This document shows positions 37,631 through 63,416 of a stretch of 64,000 bases of DNA, piece after piece. How positions within the stretch are numbered: position 1 is the first letter of the stretch; every line of letters begins with the position of its first letter. Source of the DNA: Alphaproteobacteria bacterium (GTDB taxonomy: Bacteria > Pseudomonadota > Alphaproteobacteria > UBA7887); NCBI GenBank assembly GCA_965216755.1, contig CBDCGL010000011.1, positions 1,216,001 to 1,280,000 on the forward strand. Direction: 5' to 3'. The position numbers and the translations under genes were made by a program. The notes beneath the pieces are model-generated. The model saw nothing but the letters and a program-made list of their open reading frames with translations. It was not told the origin of the DNA and made no database searches.

Positions 37631-37717
37631 GGCCGCGTGGTGGAATTGGTAGACACAGCAGACTTAAAATCTGCTTCCGTTCGCGGAGTGCCGGTTCGAG
37701 TCCGGCCGCGGCCACCA
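37631..37717 (+). tRNA. tRNA-Leu (anticodon TAA)
   Basis: Acceptor GGCCGCG/CGCGGCC, anticodon arm gcaga-ctTAAaa-tctgc, long variable arm, GGTTCGAGTCC, encoded CCA. Confidence 0.97.
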
Positions 37718-37869
37718 ATAAAATCAATGCGTTAAAGAACAGATTTCGTTGTGGCGATTTTGGGAGCGACAAGCCAGTAAGCACATAGTAAGCACGGACG
37801 CCGATTTCGCGTGGATTTCGCTCTGACACATTCATGCACTTGTAGACCCTTCACGAGCATCTGTTGCAT

Positions 37870-38214
37870 ATGCCAGACACACTCGCACGTAGAGGCGTGG
37901 GCAGGGTCACCAACCTCCCCACCCTCGAGCAGGAACTCCACGAACGCCTGATCGAATATGAGGCCCTATCCGCGGCCTGGCCGCGTGGCCGGACTGCCAT
38001 GGAGCGCTATCGGATCGGGAAGCGCCACGAACAAACGTTGGCCCGGATCGCTGAGCTCGAGGCCGCTATCGCCAGCGCCAAGGCCGTGACACTCGAGGAT
38101 GCCGCCGTGCAGCTGCGACGGGTGCTCGCCAGGTTGCATGACGCGTCACTCAAGGCGTTGGTCCTATCGGCGTTGGGGGCTGTCGGTTCGTGTGAGTGTA
38201 GCGGCTGGGTCTAG
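37870..38214 (+). CDS. Hypothetical helical protein
   Basis: Open 114-aa frame with coiled-coil character (LARIAELEAAIASAKAVTLEDAAVQLRR). Confidence 0.5.
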   Translation: MPDTLARRGVGRVTNLPTLEQELHERLIEYEALSAAWPRGRTAMERYRIGKRHEQTLARIAELEAAIASAKAVTLEDAAVQLRRVLARLHDASLKALVLSALGAVGSCECSGWV

Positions 38215-38312
38215 CGGTCAGATCCCTGACGCTACGTAGGGCATTCCCGCAATTCGGTGCGTGGCCTCGATACTACTATTCGGTCTTCATGAAAATTGGC
38301 TATGTTACTCGT

Positions 38313-39104
38313 GTGACATCAATCGTCGGCATCCAATGTAAAGATGGCATCGTAATCGGTGCGGATAGCTCTGCTACGTTCGGTGGAAGCGGCGGACGGC
38401 TCCGCACGATTGAGCAGCTCACCGAGCGCAAGATCGAGATTATACAGGACCAAGTGATTGTGGCCGGGACCGGGGCGGTTGGGCACGGTCAACGGTTCAT
38501 CGGCGTCGTAAAAGAGCTTTTCACCAATAATCAGTTGGCGAACGCTTCGGCACTGAACATCGCAAAACTGCTTTCTGCGCAGGGAATTAGAGAGTTCGCC
38601 GAAACACATATTTTCGAGCTAGATTATGGTGCCCTAGTAGCATATGTGGCGAGCGGGAAGCCGATCCTATGCGAGCTACCAGGCGGGCCATTGTTGAACC
38701 AGTCGATGCCCACAGCATTTCAGCCGGAGCTTAAGGAGCCAAATGATCTTTGGTTTGTCTCAATGGGCAGCGGGCAATCGATCACCGACTCCTTTCTCGC
38801 CCTTTTCCGTCAGGTGTTTTGGCCCGATGAACCTCCAAATCTGCAAGGAGGAATATTCATGGCACTCTGGGCACTCAGCCACGCTTGCGAGGTTAACCCG
38901 GGCGGCATCAACCGACCGGAACGTATCGCTGTACTCGCGAAAGACGGTGATGAGTTTCGTGCAAAGCTGCTCGACGACGACGAACTTGCCGAACACCGCA
39001 ATCTCGTAAACGACGCCACGAAACACATGCGCGGATTTCGAGACGTCGTCGAAGGGCAGGCCGGAACGAGCGATGTGCCCATGCCCGGCAGGTTAAGCAC
39101 TTAG
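38313..39104 (+). CDS. Proteasome beta-subunit-like N-terminal-threonine (Ntn) protease
   Basis: GTG start gives (M)TSIVGIQCKDGIVIGADS with Thr1 and Asp17 in proteasome register; RK(39)I Lys33 equivalent; AGTG; SMGSG; PGGI. Confidence 0.8.
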   Translation: MTSIVGIQCKDGIVIGADSSATFGGSGGRLRTIEQLTERKIEIIQDQVIVAGTGAVGHGQRFIGVVKELFTNNQLANASALNIAKLLSAQGIREFAETHIFELDYGALVAYVASGKPILCELPGGPLLNQSMPTAFQPELKEPNDLWFVSMGSGQSITDSFLALFRQVFWPDEPPNLQGGIFMALWALSHACEVNPGGINRPERIAVLAKDGDEFRAKLLDDDELAEHRNLVNDATKHMRGFRDVVEGQAGTSDVPMPGRLST

Positions 39105-39550
39105 CTTTGGAATACGCTATTCACGCGCATCCGGGGATAGGCTTTGTAAATCGAACCTACGAGTTGCGAAAATGAAAGGCTTTTTATCCAGCCGATAACC
39201 GTTCTCATGTAGTCTTGAACACCAGAGGGTAGCAACCGGAGTTCGGCCTCACCAATCTGTTGTCCCTGCGGAGTAAGTGAGTACCGGCGGCGGCCAGCCA
39301 TTTGATCTGAGCGCTCAACGTTCACCAGCCCCTCGGTGTGTAGGCTTTCAAGTTCGCGGTAAATCGTCTTGTCAAATGGCCCATAGTGATAGGGGACAAA
39401 AGTGAATTTGCGCCCGCCGATCGCATCTGCCACGTTCTCGTCCAACAGGAAAAACAGTTTTTGAACCTGAACAGGCGCAAACGACAGACCCCGACCGGTG
39501 GCGAGCGCCGCAAGCATGAACCGCTTTCGCTCGGATAGCCCAGCCGACAT
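39101..39550 (-). CDS. SocA/Panacea (DUF4065/YwgA)-like winged-helix protein
   Basis: VQKLFFLL...F.FVPYHYGPFD..IY.ELE.L...GLV...YSLTPQG; RBS GAGGGAGG. Confidence 0.7.
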   Translation of the reverse strand: MSAGLSERKRFMLAALATGRGLSFAPVQVQKLFFLLDENVADAIGGRKFTFVPYHYGPFDKTIYRELESLHTEGLVNVERSDQMAGRRRYSLTPQGQQIGEAELRLLPSGVQDYMRTVIGWIKSLSFSQLVGSIYKAYPRMRVNSVFQS

Positions 39551-39733
39551 AGCCGCCTCCCTCAGATCATGGGCCAGTTTGATACGGCAATTACGAAGAC
39601 TCTGTAAAGGGACGAAACCGTAATAATATGGCCGCCTGGGTTATGGGTAATTGGCAGCCGAATGCGCCTACCAAATTGGCAGAAGTTAGATCGTAAGAGC
39701 GCTTGCCGGTACTCGTTTGGCGGGCTTCCAGAT

Positions 39734-40012
39734 TCACAGTCGGTCAATTCCACCGATTTGATGACAGCTTGCCCGCAGTCGCCGCAGCCACGACCAATTG
39801 TCGCTGGAAAGAATGAGCTTGCCAATGGCAACCCACCAGGCAATCCAAACCAACAGTGCCAATCCTCCTAACATGGGCTGAGGCAGCGGCAGAGTATCCA
39901 ATAGTAGTACCGGCCAAGGGACTATAAAAAGCACGAGAAATGGCAGCCACGTCAGTGCATAAAGGCCCGTACCGACAGCAAACCGTACGATGTTGAACTC
40001 GCAGCCCTGCAT
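39734..40012 (-). CDS. Small two-TM membrane protein
   Basis: 92 aa, two Trp-rich hydrophobic segments, RBS GGGAGG 4 nt before the ATG. Confidence 0.55.
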   Translation of the reverse strand: MQGCEFNIVRFAVGTGLYALTWLPFLVLFIVPWPVLLLDTLPLPQPMLGGLALLVWIAWWVAIGKLILSSDNWSWLRRLRASCHQIGGIDRL

Positions 40013-40067
40013 GGCGCCTCCCTACCATCCGCGTGAATCCGCCCACGAGTTTACACTTCTTCGGAGG

Positions 40068-40092
40068 AAAAGCCCCGCTGAAGCGGGGCCTT
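40068..40092 (-). terminator. Rho-independent terminator-like hairpin
   Basis: Minus strand GCCCCGC-TTCA-GCGGGGC-TTTT. Confidence 0.65.
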
Positions 40093-40258
40093 GGTGCTGT
40101 CAGCGTTGTGGGCGGTTGAGGGGAAGGCAGCGCCACGAAATCTGGCGGGGGAATCTTAGCAGGATATAATTGGAGGATCGAAGGCGAGCCATATCACATG
40201 CCTTTGCTCGTCCGTTCCTTCGACTGCATCGCGTAAGTGAGAAAGATCTTGAGATAGA

Positions 40259-43200
40259 GTGGTCACTACGTCCGTAGCCCCACCGGCCTCAACAGGTGCG
40301 GCCGGGGCACAATTCGAAGCCAAGGTAGGCGCTTACTATCTGCTTGCCATGTTGCGGGGCGCGGAACCGCGCGGTTTGCCAGATAGGATTTTTGATCGCG
40401 TTGAGCTGCAGCGCGCCGCAGAGGGCCATCCGCTCGACGATATCATCGTCCATGGACATGACCAGCGCGGCGCTGAAGCTGTACTTGAAGTCCAAGTGAA
40501 GCGCGCAATCAGCTTTGCGCCGAGGGATCAAGTATTCGAAGAGGTCGTCCGCCAAATTGCCGCTGTAGTGCAAAAATCGGAACTCCTGTCCAGTCACTAC
40601 GAACTCGCAATAGCTACCGCACAAACAACGCGCGTCATTACTGGCGCGTATCAGGAGGTGTTGAACTGGGCTCGGAAGATGGGCTCGGCAATTGACTTCT
40701 TGGCACGAATCAACCGGACGGGCTCCGCCAATGACCAAATGCGCACGTTTGTCGCGACGCTACAATCGCATCTTCGACAGGGTGGCGCAGCACATGACGA
40801 CGAGACGGTTTGGCAAGTGCTTCGCCGTCTACAAATCCACGTCTATGATTTCACTGCGGTCGGGTCGGCGAGCGAATCCCATGCCCGCGATCGTGCTGCT
40901 GATGTGCTGCATCCGGACGCAAAGGGCGAAGCCGGCGCTTTGTGGAGCGCGCTAATTGAGTATGCCCTTGACCTAGCCGCGAGCGGAGGCGACGCTACGC
41001 GCCAAGACCTATTCGATGCACTCCAGGGTCGTTTCCGCTTTGAAGGAGAGCGCCGCTACTCAATTGCTCGAGCAGCAATTGCGGAGGCCTCAAAACAGGC
41101 TCTCGACGATATCTTCGATAAGGTTGGAGGTGTCGCGCTCGGGCGCCACGCTAGAATTGCCAGCATCCGAACCGCCGCCGACACCGGGCGCTTCATCCTG
41201 ATTTGCGGCGCCGCAGGTGTTGGCAAATCAGCATTGCTAAAGCATTTGGCGGAAGAAGCCGCACGCGAAAGCCGTGTCCTCGTGCTCGCACCTGGACGTG
41301 TGCCGCAAGGGGGCTGGTCGGCTCTGCGCAACCAAATCGGCTTCGACGGTACCGCCAAAGAACTATTGAGCGATCTAGCGTGCGATGGCGGCGGTTGGGT
41401 CTTCATCGATAATCTTGACTTCATTGCTCCTGAGGAACGTCCCACGGTCAACGACTTGGTACGTGCGGCGGCAGGCATCCCGGGCGTCATCGTAACCGCG
41501 ACAGCGCGTGAACGTTTTGGGCTCGACGAGCCGAGCTGGTTGCCTGAAGACGCCATCTGCTGCCTTGGACGTGCTGATACAGTGCGGGTCAATGAGCTTA
41601 GCGAAGAAGAAGTCGCCGAACTGCGTGAGGCTGAGCCGAAGCTGCGTGCATTGCTTGCTGGTGGTCATCCGGCTAAGGCAGTAACGAGAAATCTTTTCCG
41701 GTTGTCACGTCTGATTCAAGCGCCCGAAGGCGCGCGGGAGCCGCGATCAGAAGTAGATATGGCTGAACTTTGGTGGCAAACCGCTGACGGCGCACCCGCC
41801 GAGACGCGACGGGAACGAGGGCGGTTATTACGCGAACTTGCTGCGCTCTCACTCAAAGGTGACCAAAGCTTCGATGTCACGTCGCACCCTCCGTCGGCCG
41901 TTGATGCGCTCATCAAGACAGAGAGTCTGCGTGACCTCGGAAACGATCGGGTTGCGTTCCGTCATGACGTTCTTCGCGAGTGGGCGATTGCCAACCTGAT
42001 CGTCTCAAAGCCGGTAACGCTGGACCAATTGCCTTTCGCGCAGGTAGCATCGCCGGCGCTGGCTAGAGGCGTTGAGCTGGCAGCACGAATCGTGCTCGAA
42101 ATGGCGCGCGACCTCGTCAATTGGCGAAGGCTTTTGGATACCGTGAGTGGGGTGCATGCTCACCCGTCATGGCGGCGTGCTGTTTTGCTGGCTATGGCCC
42201 ATTCCGAAATCGCCGACGAACTAGTGACCTTGATGGAGGAGACGCTGCTCGCCAACGACGCAGCGCTCTTGCGTGAGCTAATCCCGATTATGATTGCGGT
42301 GGACGTGCGGTCGATTCGCGATGTCTACGCAACGGCCAGCGTGGACGCATCAGTTATTCCGGACACGCTCAATATACCGAGCAGCCCGGGATGGTGGCCT
42401 TTAGTCGAATGGCTTTTGCAGCTCGGCGACAAACTGCCGGCTGCGGCGATCCCCGCGGTGATCGATCTGCTTCTGGGTTGGTGCAACATTGGAGTAATTA
42501 CCCCAGATCTGCTTCCACACGCGGTTTTGGAGCGCCTGAAAACCTGGCTGGTGGACATAGAGAAGTCGAACGATGCCGAAAGCTGGCGCGACAGTCCGAC
42601 AGTATTCGGTGGTGAGCTCTCTCATAAGGACCTCCAGCGAATCGAGGAGAACCTTCGAGCATATTTCACGTTATTTTCCGATCGCGTACCAGATATCGCT
42701 AAAGACTACCTACGCTTTGTGCAGACACTTCGCCGCAAGGAAGATGTTTACGCAAAGCTTCTGAAATCTCATGGAACGCTGGCGCAGGCCGCACCGGAAG
42801 AGTTAGCTGCCATAACCCTCGACGCACTTCTCCACCCTGAGGAGGAGTCCAAGAAGCGCGGCAACCGCTGGTACAACGACGCTCTCACTCACGTTGATCA
42901 CGGATTTCTCCCCGCGTCACCGGAGCAAGGCCCTTTCTTTGACCTGCTCACGCACGCGCCCGCCGTTGGATTGCAGCTTATCCGCAGCCTGATTGACCGC
43001 GTGATCGATTTCCATTCCAAGGGTGAAGCCGCCGATGATCACGACACTATCCTCATTGAGCTTTCCGGTGGCACTCGCCGATTCCCGTGGGTGAACACCT
43101 ATGGATGGTCGCGCTCGAGCGGGTACTTTTCCATCACATCCGCATTGATGGCTCTCGAAGCGTGGGCACACGCACGAGCCAAGAGGGGCGATGCCATCGA

Positions 43201-45361
43201 CGCTATTGTTGCGGACGTTATCGGACCACCCGATGCGCCTGCCGCGTATTTGCTTGTTGTTGTCGACATACTGTTATCGCATTGGCCTGAGTCGCGTGCT
43301 GCTGCGATACCGTACATCGCATGTCCAGAACTTTTGTCGCTCGATCTCGTACGTCCCGTACAAGAAAGTTTCAATATGGCCAACATCTCCGGGCCGGCAG
43401 GGCCAAAGCTTGAGGCACTAAGAAGTCGCGCATCACGACGCGTGAGCCTAGACCACCTCTTACCACGCTACGCCAACAACCGCGATTGGAACGACCTTCG
43501 CGAACGCGTCGCGGAGCTTATGACAAAAGCTGCGGACCGGCTTGGCCCCTACCAGCGAAGGGACGATCTGGGTTGTCCACGGCTGATGGCGTTTCATGCT
43601 CTGAATATGCTCGACCCTGGAAACTACGTCGATGTTGAGATCGAGCGCGACGACGGCGAGAAGGTCAGTGGCCGCCAGTTCGAACCGCCAGCGGCAGAGG
43701 CGAAACACTTCGAGTTGCTACAGAAGGTGGCATTTGCGCGCGACAATGATGTTCAAGCTATGCAATGGGTGGTTGCTGCCGTTGATAATCCTGAGCGGTC
43801 ATCACCCGAGCTAGCCGAAGCTCTTGTCGAATGGGCACAGAATGTGAGGACACCCGATCCTGACGATGACGTTATCGCCGATAACATCGTAGCCGTAGCC
43901 ATGATTGCGATTCGCGACGGCGGCCCAGAATTGCGCGCGCGGATTGACCAGTGGGCACAGGATGTATTTGCCAAGGCACTGGCTACCGAGCCTGACAGAG
44001 CGCGATTCTTCCGTACCGGTATGCTCCACAATCCCATCGCCATTGCATTCGCGGGTCGTGTGTTTGCTCTTCGCAAGAGTTCGCCGACGCGAGACGAACT
44101 CAAGCGCATACTCGGCATGGCAGGCGGCGACCCTGCCGCCGCGCATGGAGCCCCAGCGGCGGCCCTCGCATTGCGTACGATCGATGCCAGATTGCCGCGA
44201 GCCGTGTTGCGCGTTGCGTTCGCGGCCAGTGTGCGGCCGTGGCGTCGGTCGAACGCCAACAGCACGGCAAACGGACTAGCGGACGAGCGCCTACGCGACA
44301 AGGTGAATAGCCAAATCAGTTCTGAACTGACATGGCTCTGTGGTGACGGCGTGGAACCAGCTTGGCCCCTGTTTCCTCGCGAGGCCGTGCGGTCACGTAG
44401 CCGTCTAGGTATGCGCATCGGTGCAGTCGGCAGGGATACGAGAGGGAACAAGAGCAATCCACGCAAGACCTTCGTGGACCATCAAGCAGCAGCGCTCTGG
44501 CTACGCGGCCTCTGGGACCCCTCTGAGACCAATCGGGATTGGCTTCGCGATCTACTCCGTACCTATGCGGCTTGGACCTTTAGCGCGAATGGTGCGGGAC
44601 TGCCCGAAGAGGAGGAGACAGCCGAACAGCCGAGTGATTGGAACAGCATCTTTTTTACTGTTTTGGCCAATTGCTTGCCGGGCTGGCCGCAGCCGTTTGT
44701 CGAGGCCGCCATCGCGCCGATCTTCACCCTCCAGGACAAGAATTTCTACGATGTAGTCGCTGAATTATTACGAGATCTCGATGTCGTTTATTTCAATAAT
44801 GCGGGCATCGGATCTGACATTGTTGTTGCAGTCCGGGCTCGAATCGCCGAGCGCCTGGAACGTAGTCATGGCTGGCAACTATTACGCGGCACCAAGTCTG
44901 ACGGCATTGAGATGCACTTGGCGCGGGCGGCCGCCGTACAGTTTTTCAACGATCACGACTTTGGCCAAACACCCAGGTGTTATTTACCCATAAACGCGAT
45001 TGAAAAATCACTCGTTTTCATACCAACGTTGCAGGAGCTCGCAGTAAGCGCGCCCTCGCCGTTCGTAGCAATCGTTGTCTTGAATTTGCTCGAGGTCGCG
45101 CCACGGGTCGCGCAGATGCCTTTCCTTCTGGCTTTCTCTTCGGCCGCGCTCGATACTTATCCTGATGATCGTGACTTTTGGATTGACCTCGGCATAGGTC
45201 GGCGCATTTGCCAGTGGATGGCGTCTGTTCGTGATGAACACCCCGGAGCGTTTGGACTTGGCGCCGACAACAGACCTGAGATTGACCGACTTCTTGCAAG
45301 ACTCGTGGCCGTGGGTGTAGTGGAAGCGCACCGCCTCGAAGTCGTGCTCAACGTGCATTGA
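40259..45361 (+). CDS. 1700-aa STAND NTPase with N-terminal PD-(D/E)xK-like nuclease and long helical C-terminus (Avs/NLR-like defence protein)
   Basis: GAQFE...PLDDIIV...LEVQVKR nuclease-like motif; Walker A GAAGVGKS; Walker B WVFIDNLD; VTATAR; FRHD winged-helix motif; over 1000 aa of helical repeats. Confidence 0.75.
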   Translation: MVTTSVAPPASTGAAGAQFEAKVGAYYLLAMLRGAEPRGLPDRIFDRVELQRAAEGHPLDDIIVHGHDQRGAEAVLEVQVKRAISFAPRDQVFEEVVRQIAAVVQKSELLSSHYELAIATAQTTRVITGAYQEVLNWARKMGSAIDFLARINRTGSANDQMRTFVATLQSHLRQGGAAHDDETVWQVLRRLQIHVYDFTAVGSASESHARDRAADVLHPDAKGEAGALWSALIEYALDLAASGGDATRQDLFDALQGRFRFEGERRYSIARAAIAEASKQALDDIFDKVGGVALGRHARIASIRTAADTGRFILICGAAGVGKSALLKHLAEEAARESRVLVLAPGRVPQGGWSALRNQIGFDGTAKELLSDLACDGGGWVFIDNLDFIAPEERPTVNDLVRAAAGIPGVIVTATARERFGLDEPSWLPEDAICCLGRADTVRVNELSEEEVAELREAEPKLRALLAGGHPAKAVTRNLFRLSRLIQAPEGAREPRSEVDMAELWWQTADGAPAETRRERGRLLRELAALSLKGDQSFDVTSHPPSAVDALIKTESLRDLGNDRVAFRHDVLREWAIANLIVSKPVTLDQLPFAQVASPALARGVELAARIVLEMARDLVNWRRLLDTVSGVHAHPSWRRAVLLAMAHSEIADELVTLMEETLLANDAALLRELIPIMIAVDVRSIRDVYATASVDASVIPDTLNIPSSPGWWPLVEWLLQLGDKLPAAAIPAVIDLLLGWCNIGVITPDLLPHAVLERLKTWLVDIEKSNDAESWRDSPTVFGGELSHKDLQRIEENLRAYFTLFSDRVPDIAKDYLRFVQTLRRKEDVYAKLLKSHGTLAQAAPEELAAITLDALLHPEEESKKRGNRWYNDALTHVDHGFLPASPEQGPFFDLLTHAPAVGLQLIRSLIDRVIDFHSKGEAADDHDTILIELSGGTRRFPWVNTYGWSRSSGYFSITSALMALEAWAHARAKRGDAIDAIVADVIGPPDAPAAYLLVVVDILLSHWPESRAAAIPYIACPELLSLDLVRPVQESFNMANISGPAGPKLEALRSRASRRVSLDHLLPRYANNRDWNDLRERVAELMTKAADRLGPYQRRDDLGCPRLMAFHALNMLDPGNYVDVEIERDDGEKVSGRQFEPPAAEAKHFELLQKVAFARDNDVQAMQWVVAAVDNPERSSPELAEALVEWAQNVRTPDPDDDVIADNIVAVAMIAIRDGGPELRARIDQWAQDVFAKALATEPDRARFFRTGMLHNPIAIAFAGRVFALRKSSPTRDELKRILGMAGGDPAAAHGAPAAALALRTIDARLPRAVLRVAFAASVRPWRRSNANSTANGLADERLRDKVNSQISSELTWLCGDGVEPAWPLFPREAVRSRSRLGMRIGAVGRDTRGNKSNPRKTFVDHQAAALWLRGLWDPSETNRDWLRDLLRTYAAWTFSANGAGLPEEEETAEQPSDWNSIFFTVLANCLPGWPQPFVEAAIAPIFTLQDKNFYDVVAELLRDLDVVYFNNAGIGSDIVVAVRARIAERLERSHGWQLLRGTKSDGIEMHLARAAAVQFFNDHDFGQTPRCYLPINAIEKSLVFIPTLQELAVSAPSPFVAIVVLNLLEVAPRVAQMPFLLAFSSAALDTYPDDRDFWIDLGIGRRICQWMASVRDEHPGAFGLGADNRPEIDRLLARLVAVGVVEAHRLEVVLNVH

Positions 45362-45818
45362 GACAGCCTAAGGACGGGATTGTCGGAAGCCGCTCGACAA
45401 CCACTCGGAGTAGAGCACTACTTTGCAAGGCGTCGCTTTGAACAAGCATTCGCCGGCCAAATGCCAGTCCCCTCCGGAAAATACATACGTGGGACAAGAA
45501 CCCAGTTCTCGGTAAAGGTATGGTTTCGGAATGGCGTCTCCCTTCAGGCGTGCCACGTTCGGGCTATTAGCGCGCATTCGCGGCTGCTCCGGTTCACATC
45601 CGGAGTTAAGACCAAGGCCTGTAACGACAACACGACAACAGGGCGGAGAGTGTATCCCCGCCCCGTTGCCTTGACTGTCAACCGGCATTGAATTGGGCCC
45701 CCCAATCGGCGTGCAAAGAGGACCCCCGTGTTGGCGTGTTTGAGGACGCCCGGAGGCGATGCGCGAAGCCATCAGGTTTGCGCAGTGCATTGCCGGAGGG
45801 CGCTTCGAGGAGGTTTTT

Positions 45819-46547
45819 TCAGGCGCGGTTTTTGAAGCGCCAGCTCTCATTGCCTGTTTCGACGATGTCGCAGTGATGTGTCAGCCGGTCAAGCAGTGCC
45901 GTCGTCATCTTTGCATCTCCGAACACGCTCGGCCATTCGCCGAAGGTCAGGTTGGTGGATACGATGATCGTCGTGCGCTCGTAGAGACGGCTGATGAGAT
46001 GGAAGAGCAACTGACCGCCGGTCTGTGCAAAGGGCAGATAGCCGAGTTCATCGAGGATCAGAAAGTCCAGTCGGCACAGAAGGTCGGCCATGCGCCCTTG
46101 CCGGTCGGCGCGCGCTTCGGCGTCGAGCTTGTTGACGAGGTCGACGACATTGAAGAACCGTCCCCGCGCCCCGTCCCGAATGCAGGCGCGGGCGATGCCC
46201 ACAGCGAGATGGGTTTTTCCTGTGCCGGTACCGCCGATCAGGATCAAGTTGCGCTGGTGCTGCAGGAATGCGCCGCCAGCCAGATCGCGCACCAAAGTCT
46301 CGTTGACCGGCGTCTCGTTGAAGTCGAATTCTTCGATCTCCTTGGCCAGCGGTAGCTTGGCGATGGTCATCTGATACTTGATCGAACGTGCTTGCTTTTC
46401 GCTGATCTCGGCATGAAGGAGGTCACCGATGATCTTCTGCGGTTCATGCTGGCGCTTTACAGCGCTGACGAGAATCTCGTCATAGGCGGCCTTCATGCCG
46501 TAGAGCTTGAGCTGTCCCATCGCGTCGAGAACTTGCAGTCTTTCCAT
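45819..46547 (-). CDS. istB: IS21 helper ATPase IstB
   Basis: [39 protein letters not shown]. Confidence 0.95.
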
Positions 46548-48045
46548 GGTTGGATCTCCTGAGGCTGTCGTAACGGGCACAATCGGCGGCAGGTTCACAC
46601 TGAAGTCGCAGCGCTTCTGGCGTTGCGATGCTCACCGGTGGGCCGGGTTCTCTCTGCCGCGCCAGGATGTTGAGAATGACGTCGGCAGAAGACACGCCCT
46701 CGCGAAGCGCTTCGGCGCAAGCGGCCTCCACCGCCGGCAGACCGTCGGTCAGCACCGCGCCAAGGATGTCCACCATTTGCCGGTCACCGTTTGCAATGTT
46801 CCGCAGCTTCCGCCGCACCTGCTTCATGGCGGTTGGAAGCGACCAGTCCTTGAACGGTGCTCCATTGCGCAACGCACCGGGTTTGCGAGCAAGAACCGGG
46901 ATGTAATGCCAAGGATCGTAGACCGTTTTGTCACGGCAGAAGACACGGGCATGGCGGCCGACAATCTGACCGCCTTGCCAGAACTCCACCTGTTCGGCAT
47001 AGGCGCGTATCTCCACCGGCCGGCCAACGGCTGTGGCATTGACCGAGTAGCGGTTGCAATCAAACCGGACCAGGCAGGTCTTGGACACTGATGCCGGCAC
47101 GGCGTGGAAGCCGTCGAAGGGACCGGTATAGGGGACAAGACTTGCGCGTTCGGCCTCGAACATTTCCCAGACAGTCTTGTCGCGCCTGTCCGGGTGTGGA
47201 TGCGCCTTTGCCCAGGCGATGCAGCGATCGAGCAGCCATGCGTTGAGGTCCCGGTAGGTCTTGAACCGCAGCCGTGGCGTGAAGAACCGACGACGTATGA
47301 CACCGACTTGGTTCTCAACCTGTCCCTTCTCCCAACCCGAGGCCGGCGTGCAGGCCACCGGCTCGACAAGGTAATGCCCGCACATTTGCAGGAACCGGCG
47401 ATTGTAGGCGCGTTCCCGGCCGACGAAGATTGCGTCGACCGCCGTCTTCATGTTGTCGTAAATGCCGCGCGCACACGCGCCCTTGAAGAAAGCGAAAGCT
47501 CGATCGTGGGCATCGAACACCATCTCTTGCGTCTCGCGGGGGTAGGCGCGGACGAACGGCATCCGGCTATGGCAGAGCCGAACATGTGCCGCCTTCACCG
47601 TCGTGGTGACCCCGTTGATCAGGACAATCTCGTGGCTCCAGTCGAACTGATATGCTTCGCCCGGATCGAAGCTCAGCGGCACGAAGGCCGATGCAGACGC
47701 TGCGCATGTCTGCCGGATCCAGGATGCGGCATAGCGCCGAACCGCGTCGTATCCGCCTTCATAGCCAAGACCGCGGAGCTCTTCGAAAATACGAACCAGT
47801 GTTAAGCGCTCGCGCTTAGGACGGCGCGCATTCTCCGTGAGCATGTGATCGAGCTCGTTCCGCCAGGGGCCGATCTTCGGCCTGGGCTGAACCGACCGCT
47901 CGTAAATGAATTCCGTCTTCCCGGAGCGGATCACTTTGCGGACAACCTTCCGCGAGACCTTCAGCTCCCGGCAAATCTGCTTGATCGGCTTCTGTTGTTG
48001 AAAATACGCCCGCCGGATCTTCGCGATCGTCTCCACTACCAGCAT
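46480..48045 (-). CDS. istA: IS21 transposase IstA
   Basis: N-terminal [25 protein letters not shown] motifs. Confidence 0.95.
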
Positions 48046-48443
48046 CCCAAACTCGGCCCCCGATTCGAATCGGGAGCACAATGGACCCTCGTATCAGGGA
48101 GGGGCCTTTTTGGACGCCGATCACCCCAATACTGGGGTCCTTATTCCACGCCGATCTACAATATTTGGCGCGCTTTGGGTTCCGCCATGAGCAGGTATTG
48201 CAAATCTCGCCCACACCCACGCGCAAGCGACGATACGGCCACCGCCCCTGCCCTCGAACACGGGCTGGACGAGGCTCCGGCCGGATACGAAGCCCTGGCC
48301 CGAATGGGGCGATGCGCCTCTTCAGGCTCTGGCGATTTCGGCACTTGGGACCGTTGAGACGAAAACGTGGACAGATCGCCCGGTCTCGGCCTTGCTGGAC
48401 CACGCACCCCTGACCATCCGTTTTGCCGAGGTCGGCGCCGCGC

Positions 48444-56260: not shown

Positions 56261-59200
56261 ATGACTGCTATTGGCGAGTGGCTCGAAGGGTTGGGGCTCG
56301 GTCAGTTCACCGAGGCCTTTGAGGCCGAGCAGATCGACTTAGATGCCTTGCCCGATATAACCGAGCAGGACCTCAAGGACATGGGGTTGCCAATCGGCCC
56401 AAGGCGAAAGATTCTTCGGGCAATCGACGCGCTAGGATCGAGCATCAACGACCCAGCCCCGCCGTCTTTGACGTCGCCTTTGCCCGAACCAAGCATGAAA
56501 TTTGTTCCGGACGCGGAGCGCCGTCAGATCACAGTGATGTTCTGCGATCTCGTGGGCTCCACAGCACTTTCCGAACAGCTCGATCCCGAGGACCTCCGAG
56601 ATTTGATGCAGGCCTACCAGCAAGCTTGCGGCGCAGTGGTAGAACGCTATGAAGGCCATGTGGCGCAATACTTGGGCGATGGACTGATGGTCTACTTCGG
56701 TTGGCCGCGTGCCCATGAGGATGATGCCGAGCGTGCGGTACGAGCCGCTTTGGACATTGTTGGTTCCGTGAAAGCGGTCGATGCGCCGACGCCCTTACAG
56801 GTGAGATTGGGCGTTGCCACCGGACCGGTGGTGGTCGGTGAGACCGGCGGCGGTGATGCCTCAGTGCCTAAGCTCGCGGTCGGCGAAACACCCAATTTGG
56901 CGGCCCGCGTGCAAGGACTGGCGGCCCCAGACGAGATCATCGTCGCGCCGGTCACGCGCGATCTTATCGGCGCGCTGTTCGACACGGACGACCTTGGTTT
57001 GCACGGACTCAAAGGCATCATCGAGCCGGTACGCGCATGGCGGGTCAACGGTTTGGCACGAGTCCAAGGACGTTTCGCGGCCAGGCGCGCAGGTGTGCGC
57101 ACGGCAATTATGGGGCGCGACAGCGAAATCACCCTGATCATGGATCGTTGGCAACGTGCCAAAGACGGTGAGGGCCAAGTCGTTCTGCTGAGTGGAGAGG
57201 CGGGAATCGGCAAAAGCCGGCTTGCCCAAGAGGTACGGGAGCGGATCGCCAGCGAGGGCCACACACGCTTGCTCTATCAATGCACGCCTTTTCATGCGAA
57301 TGCAGCATTCCATCCGATCATCGAACAGCTGCGGCACGCCCTGGATGTCACGCCCGCCGACCCGTCGCAGGACCGTTTATATCGGCTGGAAACACTCCTC
57401 GCCCAGAGTACAGAGTCGCTAGAAGAAGTTATCCCACTACTAGCTTCGCTGTTGTCGTTGTCGACGGAAGGTCGGTATCCGGCACTCGATCTCTCGCCTC
57501 GGCAACACATGGAACAGACGATTGGTGCTCTGGTGGCGCAAGTTTTGGGATTGGCAAAAAGTCGACCTGTTCTGATTATTCTTGAAGACGCGCATTGGAT
57601 CGATCCGACTACTCTCGAAACGTTTGGCGAAATCATTGCGTCAATTCACAACGCCCGGGTTCTTATCATCATCACCCATCGACCGACATTCGTGGCACCG
57701 TGGACGGGGCAGGCACATGTTGCGGTTCAGAACTTAAGCCCATTGAGCCGACGCCAAGGCGCGGCCATGGTCGCGCAGCTCACGGATGACAAGACCCTGC
57801 CGCGGGAGATATTGGACCGAATCGTCGACAGGACTGATGGCGTGCCTTTGTTTGTCGAAGAACTCACTCGAACCGTGCTCGAGGAGGGTTCGCTGAGCGA
57901 CGCGGGTGACCACTACGAGCTGGCCGTTCCATTGCAGCAATTTGCCGTTCCTGCGACGCTTCAGGATAGCCTGACGGAGCGACTTGATCGTCTCGGTCCC
58001 GCTAAGGAAGTTGCGCAAGTTGCCGCCTGTATCGGGCGCCGCTTTTCACGCTCGCTGTTGGCCGCGGTGAGCTCCGTTCAAGGCACAGCGCTTGACGCAT
58101 CCTTGGATACCCTTGTTGGCAGCGGATTGGTGTACGTCACCGGATCGGGTGCCGATCCTGCCTTCGCATTCAAGCATGCCCTTGTCCAAGAGACGACATA
58201 CGCCGGGCTGTTGAGACGCACCAAGCAGCGTATTCGAGCCACCATCGCCGATCGCCTGATCGAGGACGACCAACAGGGCCGGGGCTGCGATCCGCTCGCA
58301 GTTGCTGACCATCTTATCGCGGCGGATAAGAGTCTCGGTGCTCTGCCGTGGCTTCGCCGCGCGGCCGCCCAAGCCGTCAGTGCGGGTGCTCTGCGCGAGG
58401 CGTCAGATATCCATTCGCGTGCCTTAATATTAATTAGTGAACTCAATAAGACCGCAGAGACACGGCAAGCCGAGTTGGAGATTCTGATCGATAGTGCCCC
58501 GGTGAAGGTCGCTCTGACCGGTTGGGGCACGGAAGATATCCGAACGATGCTTGCACGCGCCCTGCAGCTCGCTGTTCAACTCGGTGACACGTCTGCACAG
58601 TCGATGGTGCTATATCACATCGCGACCATGCACGAAGTCAGGGGCGAGTTTGCGCTGACTCAGGACACATTGGCGCGTCGAAAATGTCTGCTTGGCGAGA
58701 CGCCCCAACGCCGTAGTGAGGTCGAGTCAAATGAGCTCTTGGCATGTTCCACATTTCACCAAGGTCGTTTCGACAGCGCCATCAGCCATGCCGAAAATGC
58801 GCTTGATCGTTACCAGGCGGCGGCACACCGTTTGATCGGCATCAACCTGGCGGAAGACATTGCTGCGGCTTGCGAGTTTTGGATTGCCAAAGCGCTGTTG
58901 CTTCAGGGACAAATTGGTGCGGCAAGGGCCCGCTTCGAGACAGCGAATGCCGCCGCGCATGACTCGCCGCATTGGTTTGCCCGGTCCCATGCCGAGCTCG
59001 AAGCGGCTGTTTTCTATGCCTACCTAAGAGACAGCATGGCGACGCTCAAACACGCAGCCCGGGCGGCAGAAATGTCGGAGGCAAGTGGGCTCGCCTATCG
59101 CGAAACCGTTTCGGCGCTGATCGCCGAATGGGCGCAACTGATTGGCGGCGACCGGCCGGTCCGGCTCGACGAATTTCATCGCCGCCTCAATCTTTGTCGT

Positions 59201-59626
59201 TCTGTTGGTGCCATGATTGACTATCCGTTTTTTCTCGGGCTCTTGACTGAGGCCTTTGCGCGCGCGGGCGATGCGGACAAGGGCCTGTCAACTCTCAACG
59301 AAGCCTTGGCTTTGTGCCGGCACAGCCAAGGGTTTTTCTTCGAGAGCGAGTTGCACCGGTTGGGCGGGGAAGCCGTGCTTCTGAGTCGGGCGGATCAGAC
59401 CTCTGACGCCGAGACACGCTTTGCGCGGGCGTTGGATGTTGCGAAAGCACAAGGCGCGCGTTTACTCGAGCTCCGCGCCGCCAATTCACTTGCGCGTCTT
59501 TGGCAATCCCAAGGCGAACACCAGCAAGCCTACGACCTACTCGCACCCGTCTACGAGTGGTTCACAGAGGGCTTTGACGTAGCAGATCTAACGGACGCGA
59601 AAGCGCTATTGGACGTGTTGAAATAG
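56261..59626 (+). CDS. SAM + class III adenylate/guanylate cyclase + STAND ATPase + TPR protein
   Basis: WLEGLGLGQF (SAM), MFCDLVGST, YLGDG, VGETPNLAAR, GEAGIGKS, LEDAHW, FKHALVQ, ELRAA...WFTEG. Confidence 0.92.
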   Translation: MTAIGEWLEGLGLGQFTEAFEAEQIDLDALPDITEQDLKDMGLPIGPRRKILRAIDALGSSINDPAPPSLTSPLPEPSMKFVPDAERRQITVMFCDLVGSTALSEQLDPEDLRDLMQAYQQACGAVVERYEGHVAQYLGDGLMVYFGWPRAHEDDAERAVRAALDIVGSVKAVDAPTPLQVRLGVATGPVVVGETGGGDASVPKLAVGETPNLAARVQGLAAPDEIIVAPVTRDLIGALFDTDDLGLHGLKGIIEPVRAWRVNGLARVQGRFAARRAGVRTAIMGRDSEITLIMDRWQRAKDGEGQVVLLSGEAGIGKSRLAQEVRERIASEGHTRLLYQCTPFHANAAFHPIIEQLRHALDVTPADPSQDRLYRLETLLAQSTESLEEVIPLLASLLSLSTEGRYPALDLSPRQHMEQTIGALVAQVLGLAKSRPVLIILEDAHWIDPTTLETFGEIIASIHNARVLIIITHRPTFVAPWTGQAHVAVQNLSPLSRRQGAAMVAQLTDDKTLPREILDRIVDRTDGVPLFVEELTRTVLEEGSLSDAGDHYELAVPLQQFAVPATLQDSLTERLDRLGPAKEVAQVAACIGRRFSRSLLAAVSSVQGTALDASLDTLVGSGLVYVTGSGADPAFAFKHALVQETTYAGLLRRTKQRIRATIADRLIEDDQQGRGCDPLAVADHLIAADKSLGALPWLRRAAAQAVSAGALREASDIHSRALILISELNKTAETRQAELEILIDSAPVKVALTGWGTEDIRTMLARALQLAVQLGDTSAQSMVLYHIATMHEVRGEFALTQDTLARRKCLLGETPQRRSEVESNELLACSTFHQGRFDSAISHAENALDRYQAAAHRLIGINLAEDIAAACEFWIAKALLLQGQIGAARARFETANAAAHDSPHWFARSHAELEAAVFYAYLRDSMATLKHAARAAEMSEASGLAYRETVSALIAEWAQLIGGDRPVRLDEFHRRLNLCRSVGAMIDYPFFLGLLTEAFARAGDADKGLSTLNEALALCRHSQGFFFESELHRLGGEAVLLSRADQTSDAETRFARALDVAKAQGARLLELRAANSLARLWQSQGEHQQAYDLLAPVYEWFTEGFDVADLTDAKALLDVLK

Positions 59627-59798
59627 GCCTTTGCAACCGTTCCTAAGTGGACTGCTTCGGGTCAAAAGCACGTATGCTCGGCTGCTCCGGTTCGCAGCCG
59701 GAACTGAAGCCAAAACGGACCACAGCGTGCGCCGACACGAGTCCGGGGCGGAGAGAGTTTCCCCGCCCCAATCGCTTGACCGCGCTCTTAACGACAGG

Positions 59799-60331: not shown

Positions 60332-61768
60332 CTACTCAAACATTTCTTTGAAATGGGTCGTCGCCCAACCGATCATTTCTTGGCCCATATCGGCGCTGCG
60401 TTGCATGTTGCGGTCTCGCCACGCAAACGCCGCGCCCGTGTCGGTCCAACTGGCAATCGTACGCTCCATGCTCATCGCCGTGATATCGGCTTGGGGCGGC
60501 AAATACTCCGATCCAAAGTAAATGGCCTCCATCGGATCGGCGCTGACCATCGAATAGCACGATGTATACGGACTCTCCCACGCGATCTCTTCACCCTTGA
60601 TGCGCGCGGCAATAACCTTTGCCACGAAACGCGCCTCGGCTTGCGCCGTGGAACCGCTTTTCGAGTAGCCGGTCGAACGCGAGTCACCGATCACGTAGAC
60701 CCGTTCGTCGTCGATAATATTATTTCTATATTGGTTGATCCGCGCTTCCATCTGCGGACTCGCGTCATTGACCAAACCCAACGTCTCAATCAGTCTCGCG
60801 CCGCGTATCCGCGGATAGATCGCGGCATCATCGAACGTATAGTCGTCGAATTCATCGATGACCGTTTTATTTTCGACGTCAACACCGACAACAGTAATTG
60901 ACGGGTAATATTCGATATAATCCTTATAGAGTTCGTCAAACGCGGCGTGAAACCCTTCCGCTTTTATCTTGATATCGTGATTGAAATCCAGAAGAACGAC
61001 TTTCGCACTCAGCTTTTTCCGCTTGAACACAGATGCGATCATGCAGGCGCGCTCATAAGGCGCCGGCATACAGCGATAGTTCCCGCTGGGCACGGTCAGC
61101 AAAAACAAGCCTTTTTCGAAATTGTCGACCTTGCGCTTAAGTGTTAAGTGCTCAGACCCGGGCTTGAAGGCGGCCGGAAAATTAGCCATCAGCGCATGTT
61201 TTTGGTCCGGATCATGCACGCCGATCGCATCGTAGTCATAGTCAATGCCGGGCGACAAAACCAAATAATCGTAGTCAATGTGCCCTTTCTCTGTGAAAAC
61301 GCGACGTATCTCGCGATCCACGTCCAAAACAGTCGCATTGAAGAACGTGTAGTTATTATTTCGCGCCGCGTCCAAAAAGCTATGCGTAATGAAGTCATAG
61401 TCGACCACATCGGCGAGCCAGAGATTACTGATTGGGCACGAGATGAACACGGCACGCCGCTCAACGAGAACAACGTCCAGTTCAGGACTGTGCATTTTCA
61501 AGTGCTTCGCGATGGTTAGACCGCCCCAACCACCGCCCACGACCACCGCCCGCAGTCCGCTCGGCGTCGGCAGCTCGGCTTGCTGATCGACAATGATGTT
61601 TGGTTTTATGACCGGGGACTTTGCCGCGTGGGCCGCGCCGAGTTGAGTCGTAGCCATCGCACCGACGACCCCCGCCGATGTCTGCAAAAAAGTCCGTCGT
61701 GAAATTCGTTTGGGCACGCGCTCGTTCCCTATGCTGGTCTTGAAGCCATCGTCCGGCCGAGTGTTCAC
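60332..61768 (-). CDS. Flavocytochrome c sulfide dehydrogenase flavoprotein (FccB/SoxF-like), Tat-exported
   Basis: SRRTFL Tat motif, VVGGGWGG, SCPISN, YRCMPAPYERA, VIGD, KSGSTA, TSCYS. Confidence 0.85.
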   Translation of the reverse strand: MNTRPDDGFKTSIGNERVPKRISRRTFLQTSAGVVGAMATTQLGAAHAAKSPVIKPNIIVDQQAELPTPSGLRAVVVGGGWGGLTIAKHLKMHSPELDVVLVERRAVFISCPISNLWLADVVDYDFITHSFLDAARNNNYTFFNATVLDVDREIRRVFTEKGHIDYDYLVLSPGIDYDYDAIGVHDPDQKHALMANFPAAFKPGSEHLTLKRKVDNFEKGLFLLTVPSGNYRCMPAPYERACMIASVFKRKKLSAKVVLLDFNHDIKIKAEGFHAAFDELYKDYIEYYPSITVVGVDVENKTVIDEFDDYTFDDAAIYPRIRGARLIETLGLVNDASPQMEARINQYRNNIIDDERVYVIGDSRSTGYSKSGSTAQAEARFVAKVIAARIKGEEIAWESPYTSCYSMVSADPMEAIYFGSEYLPPQADITAMSMERTIASWTDTGAAFAWRDRNMQRSADMGQEMIGWATTHFKEMFE

Positions 61769-62157
61769 TTCCGCATCGCTTATGCATTGGCGTTACCGGC
61801 TTGCAATCCGATCGTAACAAACGCGCCAATAGGCGCAAAGTCAGTGTCTGGGCCCCCGCTTAACATATGGGAAACGGATAGCACAATTCCGTAGAGAGGT
61901 CGGTATTCGGACTGACCAATAAGCGATACCGCACAGGCACAAAATTGCTTCCTTCTCGCGTTCGCCCGTGGGCGGCGCCCTAGTCGACAGACGCCAGTGC
62001 CCAGAATTGATCAGCGTACCGTGAACACAGCGGACTAGCACTTATACGTGCCTATTGCGTCCTTGGATCTCCTCCTTCCATTGCAATTTTGGCGAGCTCT
62101 GGGCAACACTGGCCGCATAAGCGGACAAAACTGGGAAGCTAAAGAGTTTCGAAAATC

Positions 62158-63108
62158 GTGATGATGACAATACGACCACCGGCCGCAACAAGAGTCCTGG
62201 CCGCCCTCGCCGCCCTTCTCGCCCCACCATGTCTCGTGGCGCAAGGCGAAGATGGCGAACCCGCCAACGCACTCGCTCGAGTTGGCGAAACTTTCCGAGA
62301 TTGCCCGGCTTGTCCCGAAATGGTTGTTGTGCCAGCCGGACAATTCATGATGGGCGCGCCGGCGGATGAGCCCGGTCGGACGGATCCCGAGGGCCCTGTT
62401 CATCGCGTTTTCATCCGCCAGCCCTTCGCCGTCGGCGCCTTTGAGGTAACGGTGGCCGAGTGGCGCGCTTGCGTCGCGGATGACGGCTGTCCGGAGGTTG
62501 AAGCAATCGGATCGCAAACGGATTGCGAGACGTGCCCGGTCACCGGTGTCAATTGGCATGACGCGCAGTCTTACCTGGTGTGGTTGAGGCAGAAGACCAA
62601 GGCGCCATACCGACTGCTCACCGAAGCACAGTGGGAATATGCAGCACGCGCCTCGACTGATACGGCGCGGTATTGGGGCGCCAGCACGAATGGCGCTTGC
62701 CAACACGAAAACCTATTTAACATCTCGGGCGTGCAAACCGGTGGCGGTGCGAATAATCAGGACAGTTGTGATGATGGATTCGCCCAGGCCGCGCCCGTCG
62801 GCTCTTTCAGTACCAATGGTTTTGGCCTCCATGACATGCTCGGCAACGTCTCGGAATGGGTCGAGGACTGTTGGTTCGAGGGCTACGCCGGTGCGCCTGT
62901 TGATGGCAATGCGCGCACGAGGTCACTCAGAACCAGCCGCCCGGAACCCTATACGCCATGGCCAGAGGGGGATTGCAGCCTTCGTGTCAATCGAGGCGGC
63001 ACCTGGCTAACGCCGGCCGACCAAGCCCGTTCCGCGAGTCGGGTCGGAAAAGATGCACGGACACGCGCGCCAGCGCTGGGATTCCGAGTCGCGAGAATTC
63101 TGCGATAG
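62158..63108 (+). CDS. Formylglycine-generating enzyme (SUMF1/FGE) domain protein, secreted
   Basis: FRDCPACPEMVVVPAGQFMMG, YRLLTEAQWEYAARA, NGFGLHDMLGNVSEW, RGGTW, GFRVAR. Confidence 0.88.
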   Translation: MMMTIRPPAATRVLAALAALLAPPCLVAQGEDGEPANALARVGETFRDCPACPEMVVVPAGQFMMGAPADEPGRTDPEGPVHRVFIRQPFAVGAFEVTVAEWRACVADDGCPEVEAIGSQTDCETCPVTGVNWHDAQSYLVWLRQKTKAPYRLLTEAQWEYAARASTDTARYWGASTNGACQHENLFNISGVQTGGGANNQDSCDDGFAQAAPVGSFSTNGFGLHDMLGNVSEWVEDCWFEGYAGAPVDGNARTRSLRTSRPEPYTPWPEGDCSLRVNRGGTWLTPADQARSASRVGKDARTRAPALGFRVARILR

Positions 63109-63416
63109 TACAAACAGTGCAATACGCCCTGCGGCCCATGACTTAGTTTCGGCCGAAATCCGCTCCGATAGAACGGTTCCGCGTGGTCGCAGGGAACGTG
63201 TGCGGGTGCCCCATAGACACGGACCGCATTAGTTGAGAGGATATGTTTGCTTGGCATTGCCACAAAAATGCGCCGGGCGAACGCGAGGTACGAAATTTTC
63301 TTGGGGGTGGAGGTTCGATTACCCTCAAGAGTGAGACTTGGGGCTGCAAGAATAGCGGCCCCCTTTTTGAGGCTTGCCAATCGAGTACAATGATTGGTGG
63401 CAGATATTTGGCGGTG

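Follow-up and report, generated by a model that had tools for sequence, protein, structure and literature searches.

We analysed a stretch of 64,000 nucleotides (nt) from the genome of an alphaproteobacterium of the GTDB lineage UBA7887 (contig CBDCGL010000011.1; hereafter, the window), whose accessory part spans roughly 10.5 kb from a tRNA-Leu gene to an IS21-family insertion sequence. Within this part, a gene for a proteasome-family threonine protease converges on a gene for a Panacea/DUF4065-like protein, here called pan, and relatives of the two genes are neighbours across bacteria and on viral contigs. Our analysis indicates that protease and pan very probably constitute a module of two genes, and that the large STAND NTPase gene of the same island is, just as probably, independent of them. 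An original prediction, made from the sequence alone, had placed the protease, a SocA/Panacea-like protein, a small membrane protein and a nuclease-STAND sensor in one candidate locus; the pairing of the protease with the SocA-like gene is real, whereas the STAND and membrane genes are absent from all of the related loci that we collected.

Protease and pan as an inherited pair

The two genes lie in the window as follows:

38313..39104, + strand: Thr1 proteasome-family (N-terminal nucleophile, Ntn) protease of 263 amino acids (aa), assigned by PF00227, catalytic triad and fold; an in-frame ATG at 38289 would add 8 residues
39101..39550, − strand: pan, a 149-aa Panacea/DUF4065-like, DarG-C-terminal-domain-like winged-helix protein, assigned by fold and motif

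The protease stop codon, TAG, occupies 39102–39104, and the TAA that ends the pan open reading frame (ORF) is the reverse complement of 39101–39103, which makes the TTAG at 39101–39104 a true stop–stop overlap. The gene coordinates and this overlap, both part of the original prediction, are borne out by the sequence and the ORF list.

Related loci were collected from both sides of the pair. For the protease, one genome per species was searched across 185,579 species, yielding 178 stretches with a relative, of which the best 80 loci were kept; for pan, 98 loci were gathered, 80 from metagenomes and 18 viral. Pan adjoins the protease in 76 of the 80 protease-side loci, and the protease adjoins pan in 82 of the 90 pan-side loci that could be assessed, in the following arrangements:

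Protease side, 70/80: pan directly upstream on the same strand (gaps of 3–31 nt in 68)
Protease side, 5/80: pan and protease convergent, as in the window
Protease side, 1/80: pan and protease divergent
Protease side, 4/80: no pan beside the protease (one of these at a contig edge)
Pan side, 76/98: protease adjacent, pan first (gaps up to 32 nt)
Pan side, 5/98: protease adjacent, on the opposite strand
Pan side, 1/98: protease adjacent, protease first
Pan side, 8/98: no protease, even by profile
Pan side, 8/98: not assessable

The original prediction had proposed counting how often protease homologs neighbour SocA-like and STAND genes, and had named a near-absence of such neighbours among the grounds for giving the idea up. 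A SocA-like neighbour turned out to be the rule, whereas a relative of the window's STAND gene was found in 0 of the 80 loci.

Spacing within the pair is tight. In two loci (L005 and L006), pan ends where the protease begins, its stop codon abutting the start codon or overlapping it, and the 4-nt overlap of ORF ends seen in the window is kept in three of the five related convergent loci. The non-operonic arrangements cluster in a single clade of nine rows, with a value of 92 in the Shimodaira–Hasegawa-like approximate likelihood ratio test (SH-aLRT). Pairwise distances of protease and pan are correlated (r 0.68 over 79 pairs), and none of 500 permutations gave a correlation as high; L036, at a contig edge, and L048 and L076, with partial alignments, were left out of both the tree and this comparison. 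The two genes are inherited as a unit.

Clustering of all neighbours revealed no third conserved gene, the next commonest neighbour family occurring in 10 of 81 loci. The neighbour scans covered 126 of 149 flanking ORFs, those below 80 aa or above 900 aa being left out, and the Pfam content of these 126 is heterogeneous: the commonest families, UvrB and Orn/DAP (ornithine/diaminopimelate) decarboxylase, come from one Chloroflexota clade, and further families include transposases, integrases, methylases, Abi_2, a DpnII-type enzyme and a P22-type portal. PADLOC recognized GajB, AbiD, methyltransferases and a few others among the flanking ORFs.

The 80 protease-side loci span 14 bacterial phyla and one archaeon, a methanogen, with a tree that cuts across phyla. 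In the window's class, the protease was detected at E up to 1e-15 in just 1 of 401 sampled genomes, the window's own, and among 22 genomes of the same family one carries a pair, which is divergent. The pair behaves as an accessory, mobile element. In the divergent pair (L085, G017:C1:1517017-1520358), a protease with about 26% identity to that of the window is preceded by a pan with 40% identity, the partner being conserved better than the protease; this pair and all three viral (IMG/VR) protease loci have the order pan, then protease. Identical proteases occur on a Rhizomicrobium genome contig (L063) and on an IMG/VR viral contig (L082), the latter probably being a prophage or a mis-binned region of the Rhizomicrobium genome.

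Two sister Planctomycetota homologs of the protease (L064, 10004–10687, and L077, 9992–10687) sit on a long branch without pan and have Gly in place of Thr1. L054 is also a long branch without pan; it keeps Thr1 and carries the changes S158A and D167E, at positions that are nearly invariant (S158) and invariant (D167) in our 25-sequence alignment.

On the pan side, eight loci hold a bona fide pan (profile E 1e-45 to 1e-53) without a protease, six of them on viral contigs (L181/L182/L183, L185, L186 and L191, three contigs being identical) and two in metagenomes (L138 and L171). Such orphans are commoner among viral loci (6 of 17 assessable) than among metagenome loci (2 of 73), with a Fisher p of 4e-4, or of 0.007 when the identical contigs are merged (4 of 15), both of which are rough values because related contigs are not independent. 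The orphan of L191 lies between portal and head-morphogenesis genes, that of L185 between large terminase and portal genes, with a 120-aa C-terminal extension on pan, and that of L181 near a large terminase gene. L186 carries two tandem pan paralogs.

Active site, folds and motifs of the two proteins

The protease ORF (38289/38313–39104) matches the Pfam Proteasome model PF00227 at E 3.1e-9 (37.2 bits, cut-off 22.4). Thr10, Asp26 and Lys48, equivalent to Thr1, Asp17 and Lys33 in proteasome numbering, are invariant in the 25-sequence alignment, as is G62, which aligns with Gly47 of archaeal beta subunits in a hidden Markov model alignment. This above-cut-off match and the invariant triad confirm the Thr1 Ntn protease of the original prediction. 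All 24 aligned relatives start with Met-Thr and have no propeptide, and this common start makes the GTG at 38313 the likely start of the protease. The triad is kept in 80 of 85 protease homologs, and judged by its residues the enzyme looks active.

An AlphaFold2 (AF2) model of the protease, with a predicted local distance difference test score (pLDDT) of 88 and a predicted template-modelling score (pTM) of 0.86, shows the proteasome fold and a long C-terminal helix formed by residues 230–254. Its top Foldseek matches are 20S alpha and beta subunits, at E about 1e-11 and with TM (by target length) up to 0.79, Anbu ranking lower. The protease profile, run against PDB sequences, reaches only 20S alpha and beta chains at E up to 0.01, with no HslV, Anbu or BPH. 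PHROGs gives a weak match to an HslV-family peptidase (3.1e-4), and PADLOC has no model that matches. A word-based search of 5.8 billion clusters returned 225 relatives of about 250 aa, nearly all of them metagenome singletons. A PF00227 search of the window's genome recovered the island protease again and, elsewhere, a second gene, which scores better.

The protease shares its beta-type fold, the residues Thr1/Asp17/Lys33/Gly47 and the missing propeptide with HslV, Anbu, BPH and the 22 families of Fuchs, Alva and Lupas (2021, PMC8665760, cited here and below from excerpts), and its long C-terminal helix resembles that described there for Anbu, WPH and ACC. It differs from these homologs in that its family has a near-obligate partner and in that its sequence profile reaches only 20S chains in the PDB; according to the excerpted text, no informative genomic context was found for the 22 new proteasome homolog families.

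A search for longer protease proteins found no fusion, which is weak evidence. The fusion candidate P0060 (395 aa) has an Arg-rich, low-complexity C-terminal extension without similarity to pan, and was taken as read-through. In the closest genome relative (L001), a 268-aa ORF (9219–10025) without a Pfam assignment shares 4 nt with the start of the protease gene; it is unrelated to the 116-aa ORF that precedes the protease in the window.

Pan is harder to place by sequence. The window protein does not match the Pfam SocA_Panacea model (PF13274) even at E 1, and 14 of 37 relatives do, at best with 5.6e-5. Among NCBIfam models it approaches DarG (E 0.021) and SocA_antitoxin (NF047745, E 0.04), its 13.6 bits remaining far below the equivalog cut-off of 190 for the latter. 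With PADLOC, pan matches DarG (3.5e-5), PDC-M19A (9e-12) and, of a type I specificity model, the C-terminal part (4.8e-13), and PHROGs gives a weak match to phrog_14939 (8.8e-7).

The fold is more telling. In the AF2 model of pan (pLDDT 93.6) the last residues are unstructured, and its best VIA-align match is the DarG C-terminal domain in the DarTG complex (7yk3_D; Z 11.2, root-mean-square deviation 4.1, 140 residues aligned), at 15% identity and a Foldseek E of 4.3e-4. Subsequent rows have Z of 8.7 and below and cover only the winged helix of about 90 residues (87 in the next row), leaving the DarG C-terminal domain as the only full-length structural match of pan. DUF4065 proteins have been described as homologous to this DarT-inhibiting domain (2026 paper, PMC13621843, likewise cited from excerpts).

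Conserved residues of pan cluster in two adjoining elements. G57 and F59 are invariant and P58 nearly so, all three lying in the strand 57–59, and Q28, Q30, K31 and F34 are invariant in helix 26–40 beside it. The Panacea signature, GPV, has been described as a beta strand beside a conserved central helix (Kurata 2022, PMC8832971, also cited from excerpts), and the strand of pan has this arrangement with Val replaced by Phe. The Panacea/SocA label for the window protein thus rests mainly on fold and motif: the SocA/DUF4065-like assignment of the original prediction agrees with the fold and the GP[VF] motif, while the Pfam SocA_Panacea model misses the protein.

A further motif, [NK]S[VI]F, stands near the C-terminus of all 81 pan family members and is followed by 1–8 residues, exactly 2 in 59 of the 81 and 1–5 in 80 of them; it is kept in most of the orphan pan proteins. 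Among the best 150 matches of the pan profile, no protein is long enough to include the protease. Ten long pan relatives have N-terminal extensions without a Pfam domain, which are probably over-called starts.

The winged helix raises the question of whether pan is a PadR/MarR-type repressor of the adjacent protease gene, with the protease serving ordinary protein quality control. Weak PadR matches were obtained for 17 of the 37 pan relatives (best 3.3e-5), many MarR/PadR structures match pan residues 1–110 at Z 7–8.7, and the window protein is basic, with an isoelectric point (pI) of 9.8; the housekeeping synteny of the pair in a Chloroflexota clade (detailed below) would also suit a repressor. 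However, this pI is not conserved (family median 6.1; 10 of 37 relatives basic), and invariance falls on the Panacea-type helix, on the GP[VF] strand and on the C-terminal tail, whereas the polar positions of the putative recognition helix vary. Furthermore, the only whole-protein match is a protein-binding antitoxin domain, the orphans in phage structural modules fit a housekeeping role poorly, as does the fact that the pair is extremely rare, and a second, better-scoring PF00227 gene is present elsewhere in the genome. We therefore regard regulation of the protease gene as an improbable account of pan, while noting that it can coexist with the toxin–antitoxin and adaptor readings discussed below, type II antitoxins often being autoregulatory.

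The remainder of the island

Around the pair, the accessory stretch contains the following features:

37631..37717, + strand: tRNA-Leu (anticodon UAA; ARAGORN), the left edge of the accessory stretch
37864..38214, + strand: 116-aa ORF of unknown status (ORF list), outside the conserved module
39734..40012, − strand: 92-aa ORF on the same strand as pan and 183 nt upstream of it, containing two hydrophobic segments; status uncertain
40069..40092, no strand assigned: G+C-rich hairpin that separates the membrane ORF from the STAND gene, its 11-nt arms being 91% complementary
40259..45361, + strand: 1700-aa STAND NTPase, a distant collinear relative of Avs4 (profile matches, Walker A)
45819..48081, − strand: IS21-family insertion sequence (istA 46480–48081, istB 45819–46598), the right edge of the accessory stretch

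The 1700-aa protein has P-loop and STAND matches below the Pfam cut-offs, and PADLOC gives PDC-M54A at 6e-12 and Avs4 at 2e-10. It falls far short of the NCBIfam Avs4 equivalog (NF041815; 46.3 bits, cut-off 1500). Nevertheless, a profile built from 20 of its homologs matches the solved Avs4 structure 8dgf_A at E 5.7e-7 in three collinear stretches (residues 280–334, 568–765 and 864–1046 against 192–250, 468–672 and 761–951), and the invariant G317, G320, G322, K323 and S324 fit a GxxGxGKS Walker A motif. Like Avs4, then, it is the product of a single large gene with a P-loop STAND core and a similar length.

It differs from Avs4 in that no profile identifies its N-terminal domain. E20, D60, D61, E77, Q79 and K81 are invariant there in the 20 homologs, a pattern that would fit a PD-(D/E)xK nuclease, and the Atlas pointed to Cap4_nuclease, though below threshold (score 0.89). 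PF14130 has no match in the window's genome, and a phmmer search of residues 1–300 against the PDB returned nothing meaningful. The nuclease-STAND label of the original prediction is accordingly upheld for the P-loop STAND NTPase, while no profile names the N-terminus a nuclease.

With residues 1–300 as query, at least 532 homologs were recovered, nearly all of about 1710 aa and with about 58% identity across phyla. By tblastn, the 1700-aa protein has no match beside the pair in any of the 80 protease-side or 98 pan-side loci. STAND homologs occur in 4 of the 401 class genomes, the window's own included, and the other three have no protease. Because the gene is never found beside the pair, occurs in genomes without the protease and belongs to a single-gene family, we conclude that this is an Avs4-like single-gene system in its own right, with only its island in common with the pair.

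The 92-aa membrane ORF has two hydrophobic stretches and a coding-like G+C pattern, as the original prediction of a small membrane gene would have it, yet it has no relative in any profile library searched or in the 80 + 98 loci. The five related convergent loci contain no small membrane ORF upstream of pan. A role for this ORF as a PanT-like toxin controlled by pan was considered and rejected, the ORF not being conserved in any related locus. A 130-aa ORF (39744–40136, − strand) overlaps it in another frame; its G+C contents at codon positions 1, 2 and 3 (GC1/2/3) are 0.59/0.61/0.51, which is not coding-like and makes the 92-aa frame the likelier one.

A system in which protease, pan, membrane protein and STAND sensor act together, the STAND protein sensing phage and signalling to the pair or being controlled by it, is very hard to credit. 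In its favour stand the adjacency of the genes in this single island, the known clustering of defence genes and the presence of further defence genes beside a few pair loci. All the same, the STAND and membrane proteins are without a match in the related loci, the three other STAND-bearing genomes of the class sample all lack the protease, and the STAND protein belongs to a uniform single-gene family related to the stand-alone Avs4. In our judgement, a three-part 'protease + adaptor + STAND' system is not real.

Upstream of the tRNA-Leu lie housekeeping genes for RadC, an M24 Met-aminopeptidase-type peptidase, SfsA and a CinA-like MoCF domain protein, and beyond the insertion sequence, from 48444, a di-haem oxidoreductase, a LysR regulator and metabolic housekeeping-type genes follow. 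The insertion sequence itself was recognized by IstB_IS21 (E 2.8e-73) and by rve and Mu-transposase C-terminal domains. The G+C content at third codon positions (GC3) is 0.57–0.60 in the island genes and 0.65–0.72 in flanking genes. Neither an integrase nor an attachment-site-like direct repeat of the tRNA end was found at the island. The status of a tRNA island, as originally proposed, is plausible, though it lacks the integrase and the repeat. The protease is also not directly after the tRNA-Leu, as had been stated: the tRNA does lie upstream, with 596 nt and the 116-aa ORF in between. This ORF has a coding-like GC1/2/3 pattern, no significant family match in the profile libraries searched and no tblastn match in the 80 + 98 related loci.

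Promoter and terminator scans of the locus gave counts no better than shuffled sequences. Inverted-repeat scans of three intergenic regions found only two hairpins; the one at 40069–40092 is terminator-like when read on the − strand, on the strength of consensus matches only, whose count does not exceed that in shuffles.

Outside the stretch between tRNA and IS21, amid metabolic genes, the window contains a second large STAND-type gene (56261–59626, + strand), whose 1121-aa product combines a SAM domain, an adenylate/guanylate cyclase domain and an AAA_16/NACHT-like NTPase. A direct repeat of 58 nt (45558–45615 and 59656–59713, 74% identity), containing a CTCCGG...CCGGAG hairpin, has one copy shortly 3′ of the stop codon of each of the two large STAND genes, and may be a repetitive extragenic palindrome (REP)-like or terminator element. 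From 60332 to 63971, the window ends in sulfur-oxidation genes, including a flavocytochrome c sulfide dehydrogenase-like gene and SoxY.

Possible control of the protease by pan

Direct protein–protein control of the protease by pan is the most economical reading of the pair. In structure prediction, the complex of the two proteins reached a median interface score (ipSAE) of 0.50 (runs 0.61, 0.50 and 0.46), against 0.09 for the best of three controls; the runs agree in at least 72% of contacts, with partner pLDDT of at least 86. Of 80 solved complexes, 58 attained the ipSAE mark, as did 2 of 110 mismatched pairs, and the range of 0.60 or below held only 7 of those 80 complexes and both of the mismatches. 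The prediction thus lends weak support to binding of pan to the protease.

We tentatively read the pair as a PanAT-like toxin–antitoxin (TA) or abortive-infection module with the protease as effector, a view to which we give somewhat less than even chances. Pan would bind the protease directly and keep it in check; if pan were titrated, displaced or lost, for example during phage infection, the protease would be freed, and the free Thr1 enzyme would degrade cellular or phage proteins until growth stops. The orphan pan genes of phages could then act as counter-defence 'antitoxin mimics', for which orphan antitoxins that phages reportedly direct at DarTG would be a precedent. The analysis establishes the pairing, the lack of a third partner, the conserved active site, both folds and the rare, patchy occurrence of the pair, whereas direct binding, inhibition as its direction, toxicity and an anti-phage role are the elements that we infer here.

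This model draws on the antitoxin-type fold of pan, the antitoxin-first operon, the rarity and mobility of the pair, and the orphans in phage packaging modules. The layout is that of a type II TA system, with two adjacent small genes, mostly pan first, closely spaced and in varying contexts; in the window itself, the genes converge. Antitoxin-first is also the common order in PanAT loci (Kurata 2022, PMC8832971). The pair resembles PanAT further in the GP[VF] strand beside a conserved helix, in its scattered distribution and in having members on phages, and differs from it in that the partner is a proteasome-family threonine protease, that the window pan misses the Pfam model and that pan has an extra invariant C-terminal tail. 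The DarG C-terminal domain, with which pan shares its full-length fold and weak profile matches, binds and inhibits its own toxin (PMC13621843). Unlike DarG, pan has no macrodomain, and its partner is a protease instead of an ADP-ribosyltransferase; the two proteins are only 15% identical.

Several observations weigh against a TA or abortive-infection role. The complex score belongs to a weak-pass class that, in the absence of a good prior, is more often wrong than right. To our knowledge, no proteasome-family protease acts as a toxin. Such proteases usually need assembly and often an unfoldase, so that a free protease would perhaps be harmless. The [NK]S[VI]F tail, with its constrained distance from the end, reminds us less of an inhibitor than of the tails by which activators dock on the proteasome and on HslV. 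Defence genes make up only a handful of the 126 immediate neighbours. In a clade of 7–8 Chloroflexota genomes (loci L066, L069, L070, L071, L073, L078 and L080), the pair stands in conserved synteny between UvrB and Orn/DAP decarboxylase, which points to stable vertical transmission and, perhaps, to a housekeeping function. In the window's clade, the genes are convergent and hence not co-transcribed, which is unusual for an antitoxin–toxin pair. The losses of pan, two independent events only, fit TA and obligate-cofactor models equally well. Finally, the strict partner fidelity of the pair contrasts with the partner swapping described for Panacea in the excerpted text (Kurata 2022, PMC8832971), a difference that also sets it apart from PanAT.

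The tail is the starting point for a second explanation, in which pan is an adaptor or activator, that is, a regulatory or recognition subunit of a dedicated protease, and not its inhibitor. The winged-helix/Panacea body would bind a host or phage substrate, and docking of the C-terminal tail on the protease oligomer would open or activate the latter, much as SocA delivers SocB to ClpXP or as activator tails act on the 20S proteasome and HslV. An invariant [NK]S[VI]F with a short tail in all 81 pan proteins, unstructured at its very end in the model, is what such docking might require, and a stable hetero-complex would agree with the tight coupling in operons and the equal rates of evolution. 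In addition, loss of pan accompanies decay of the protease active site, and the predicted complex, at 0.50 against 0.09 for the best control, would suit an activator as well, weak as this support for binding is. In the excerpted text of Fuchs, Alva and Lupas (2021, PMC8665760), no AAA+ partners are reported for the new proteasome homologs, so that a partner other than an ATPase is conceivable, and SocA, a Panacea protein, is itself a proteolytic adaptor (Kurata 2022, PMC8832971).

The comparison with SocAB, the type VI TA system, has limits. There as here, a Panacea-family protein is functionally tied to a protease, but in our loci the protease is encoded next door and is of the proteasome family, and no SocB-like third gene is conserved, which also leaves an adaptor without a conserved candidate for its substrate. 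The likeness to HbYX- and HslU-type tails is a putative one; the aromatic residue of pan is a Phe, third from the end in most members. The only full-length structural match of pan is an inhibitor domain, and the orphans in phage packaging modules are more easily explained as inhibitors of a host effector than as adaptors. Moreover, the PanA proteins examined neutralize their toxins directly, without a need for ClpXP or Lon (Kurata 2022, PMC8832971, excerpted). We consider the adaptor or activator explanation possible but doubtful.

To return to the TA and abortive-infection reading, its most specific form would be a new class in which a proteasome-family threonine protease is held by a Panacea-like partner through a C-terminal docking tail, with phage orphans serving as counter-defence; we rate this rather unlikely, while putting it forward as a proposal. 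Our search found no published description of a pair of proteasome-like protease and Panacea protein. The portions of the main text of the Kurata 2022 and Ernits 2023 Panacea papers that we drew on mention no proteasome-like partner, and their supplementary tables may list it.

Apart from HslV and the 20S core, no partner or function is known for the proteasome homologs of bacteria and archaea. For the family studied here, a near-obligate partner with a Panacea/DarG-C-terminal-domain fold turns 'function unknown' into two sharp hypotheses, in line with the two mechanisms that the original prediction had offered: either the protease is a toxin and pan its antitoxin, or pan serves the protease as a non-ATPase adaptor or activator. 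If the pair proved to be an adaptor system, it would represent a minimal, ATP-independent way of targeting substrates to a proteasome-like protease. If it is instead a TA module, proteolysis by a threonine protease would be a new effector chemistry for toxin–antitoxin and anti-phage systems, and the orphan pan genes would supply candidate phage counter-defence genes. Should the proposed new class hold, it would provide the first functional context for one of the 'orphan' prokaryotic proteasome homologs.

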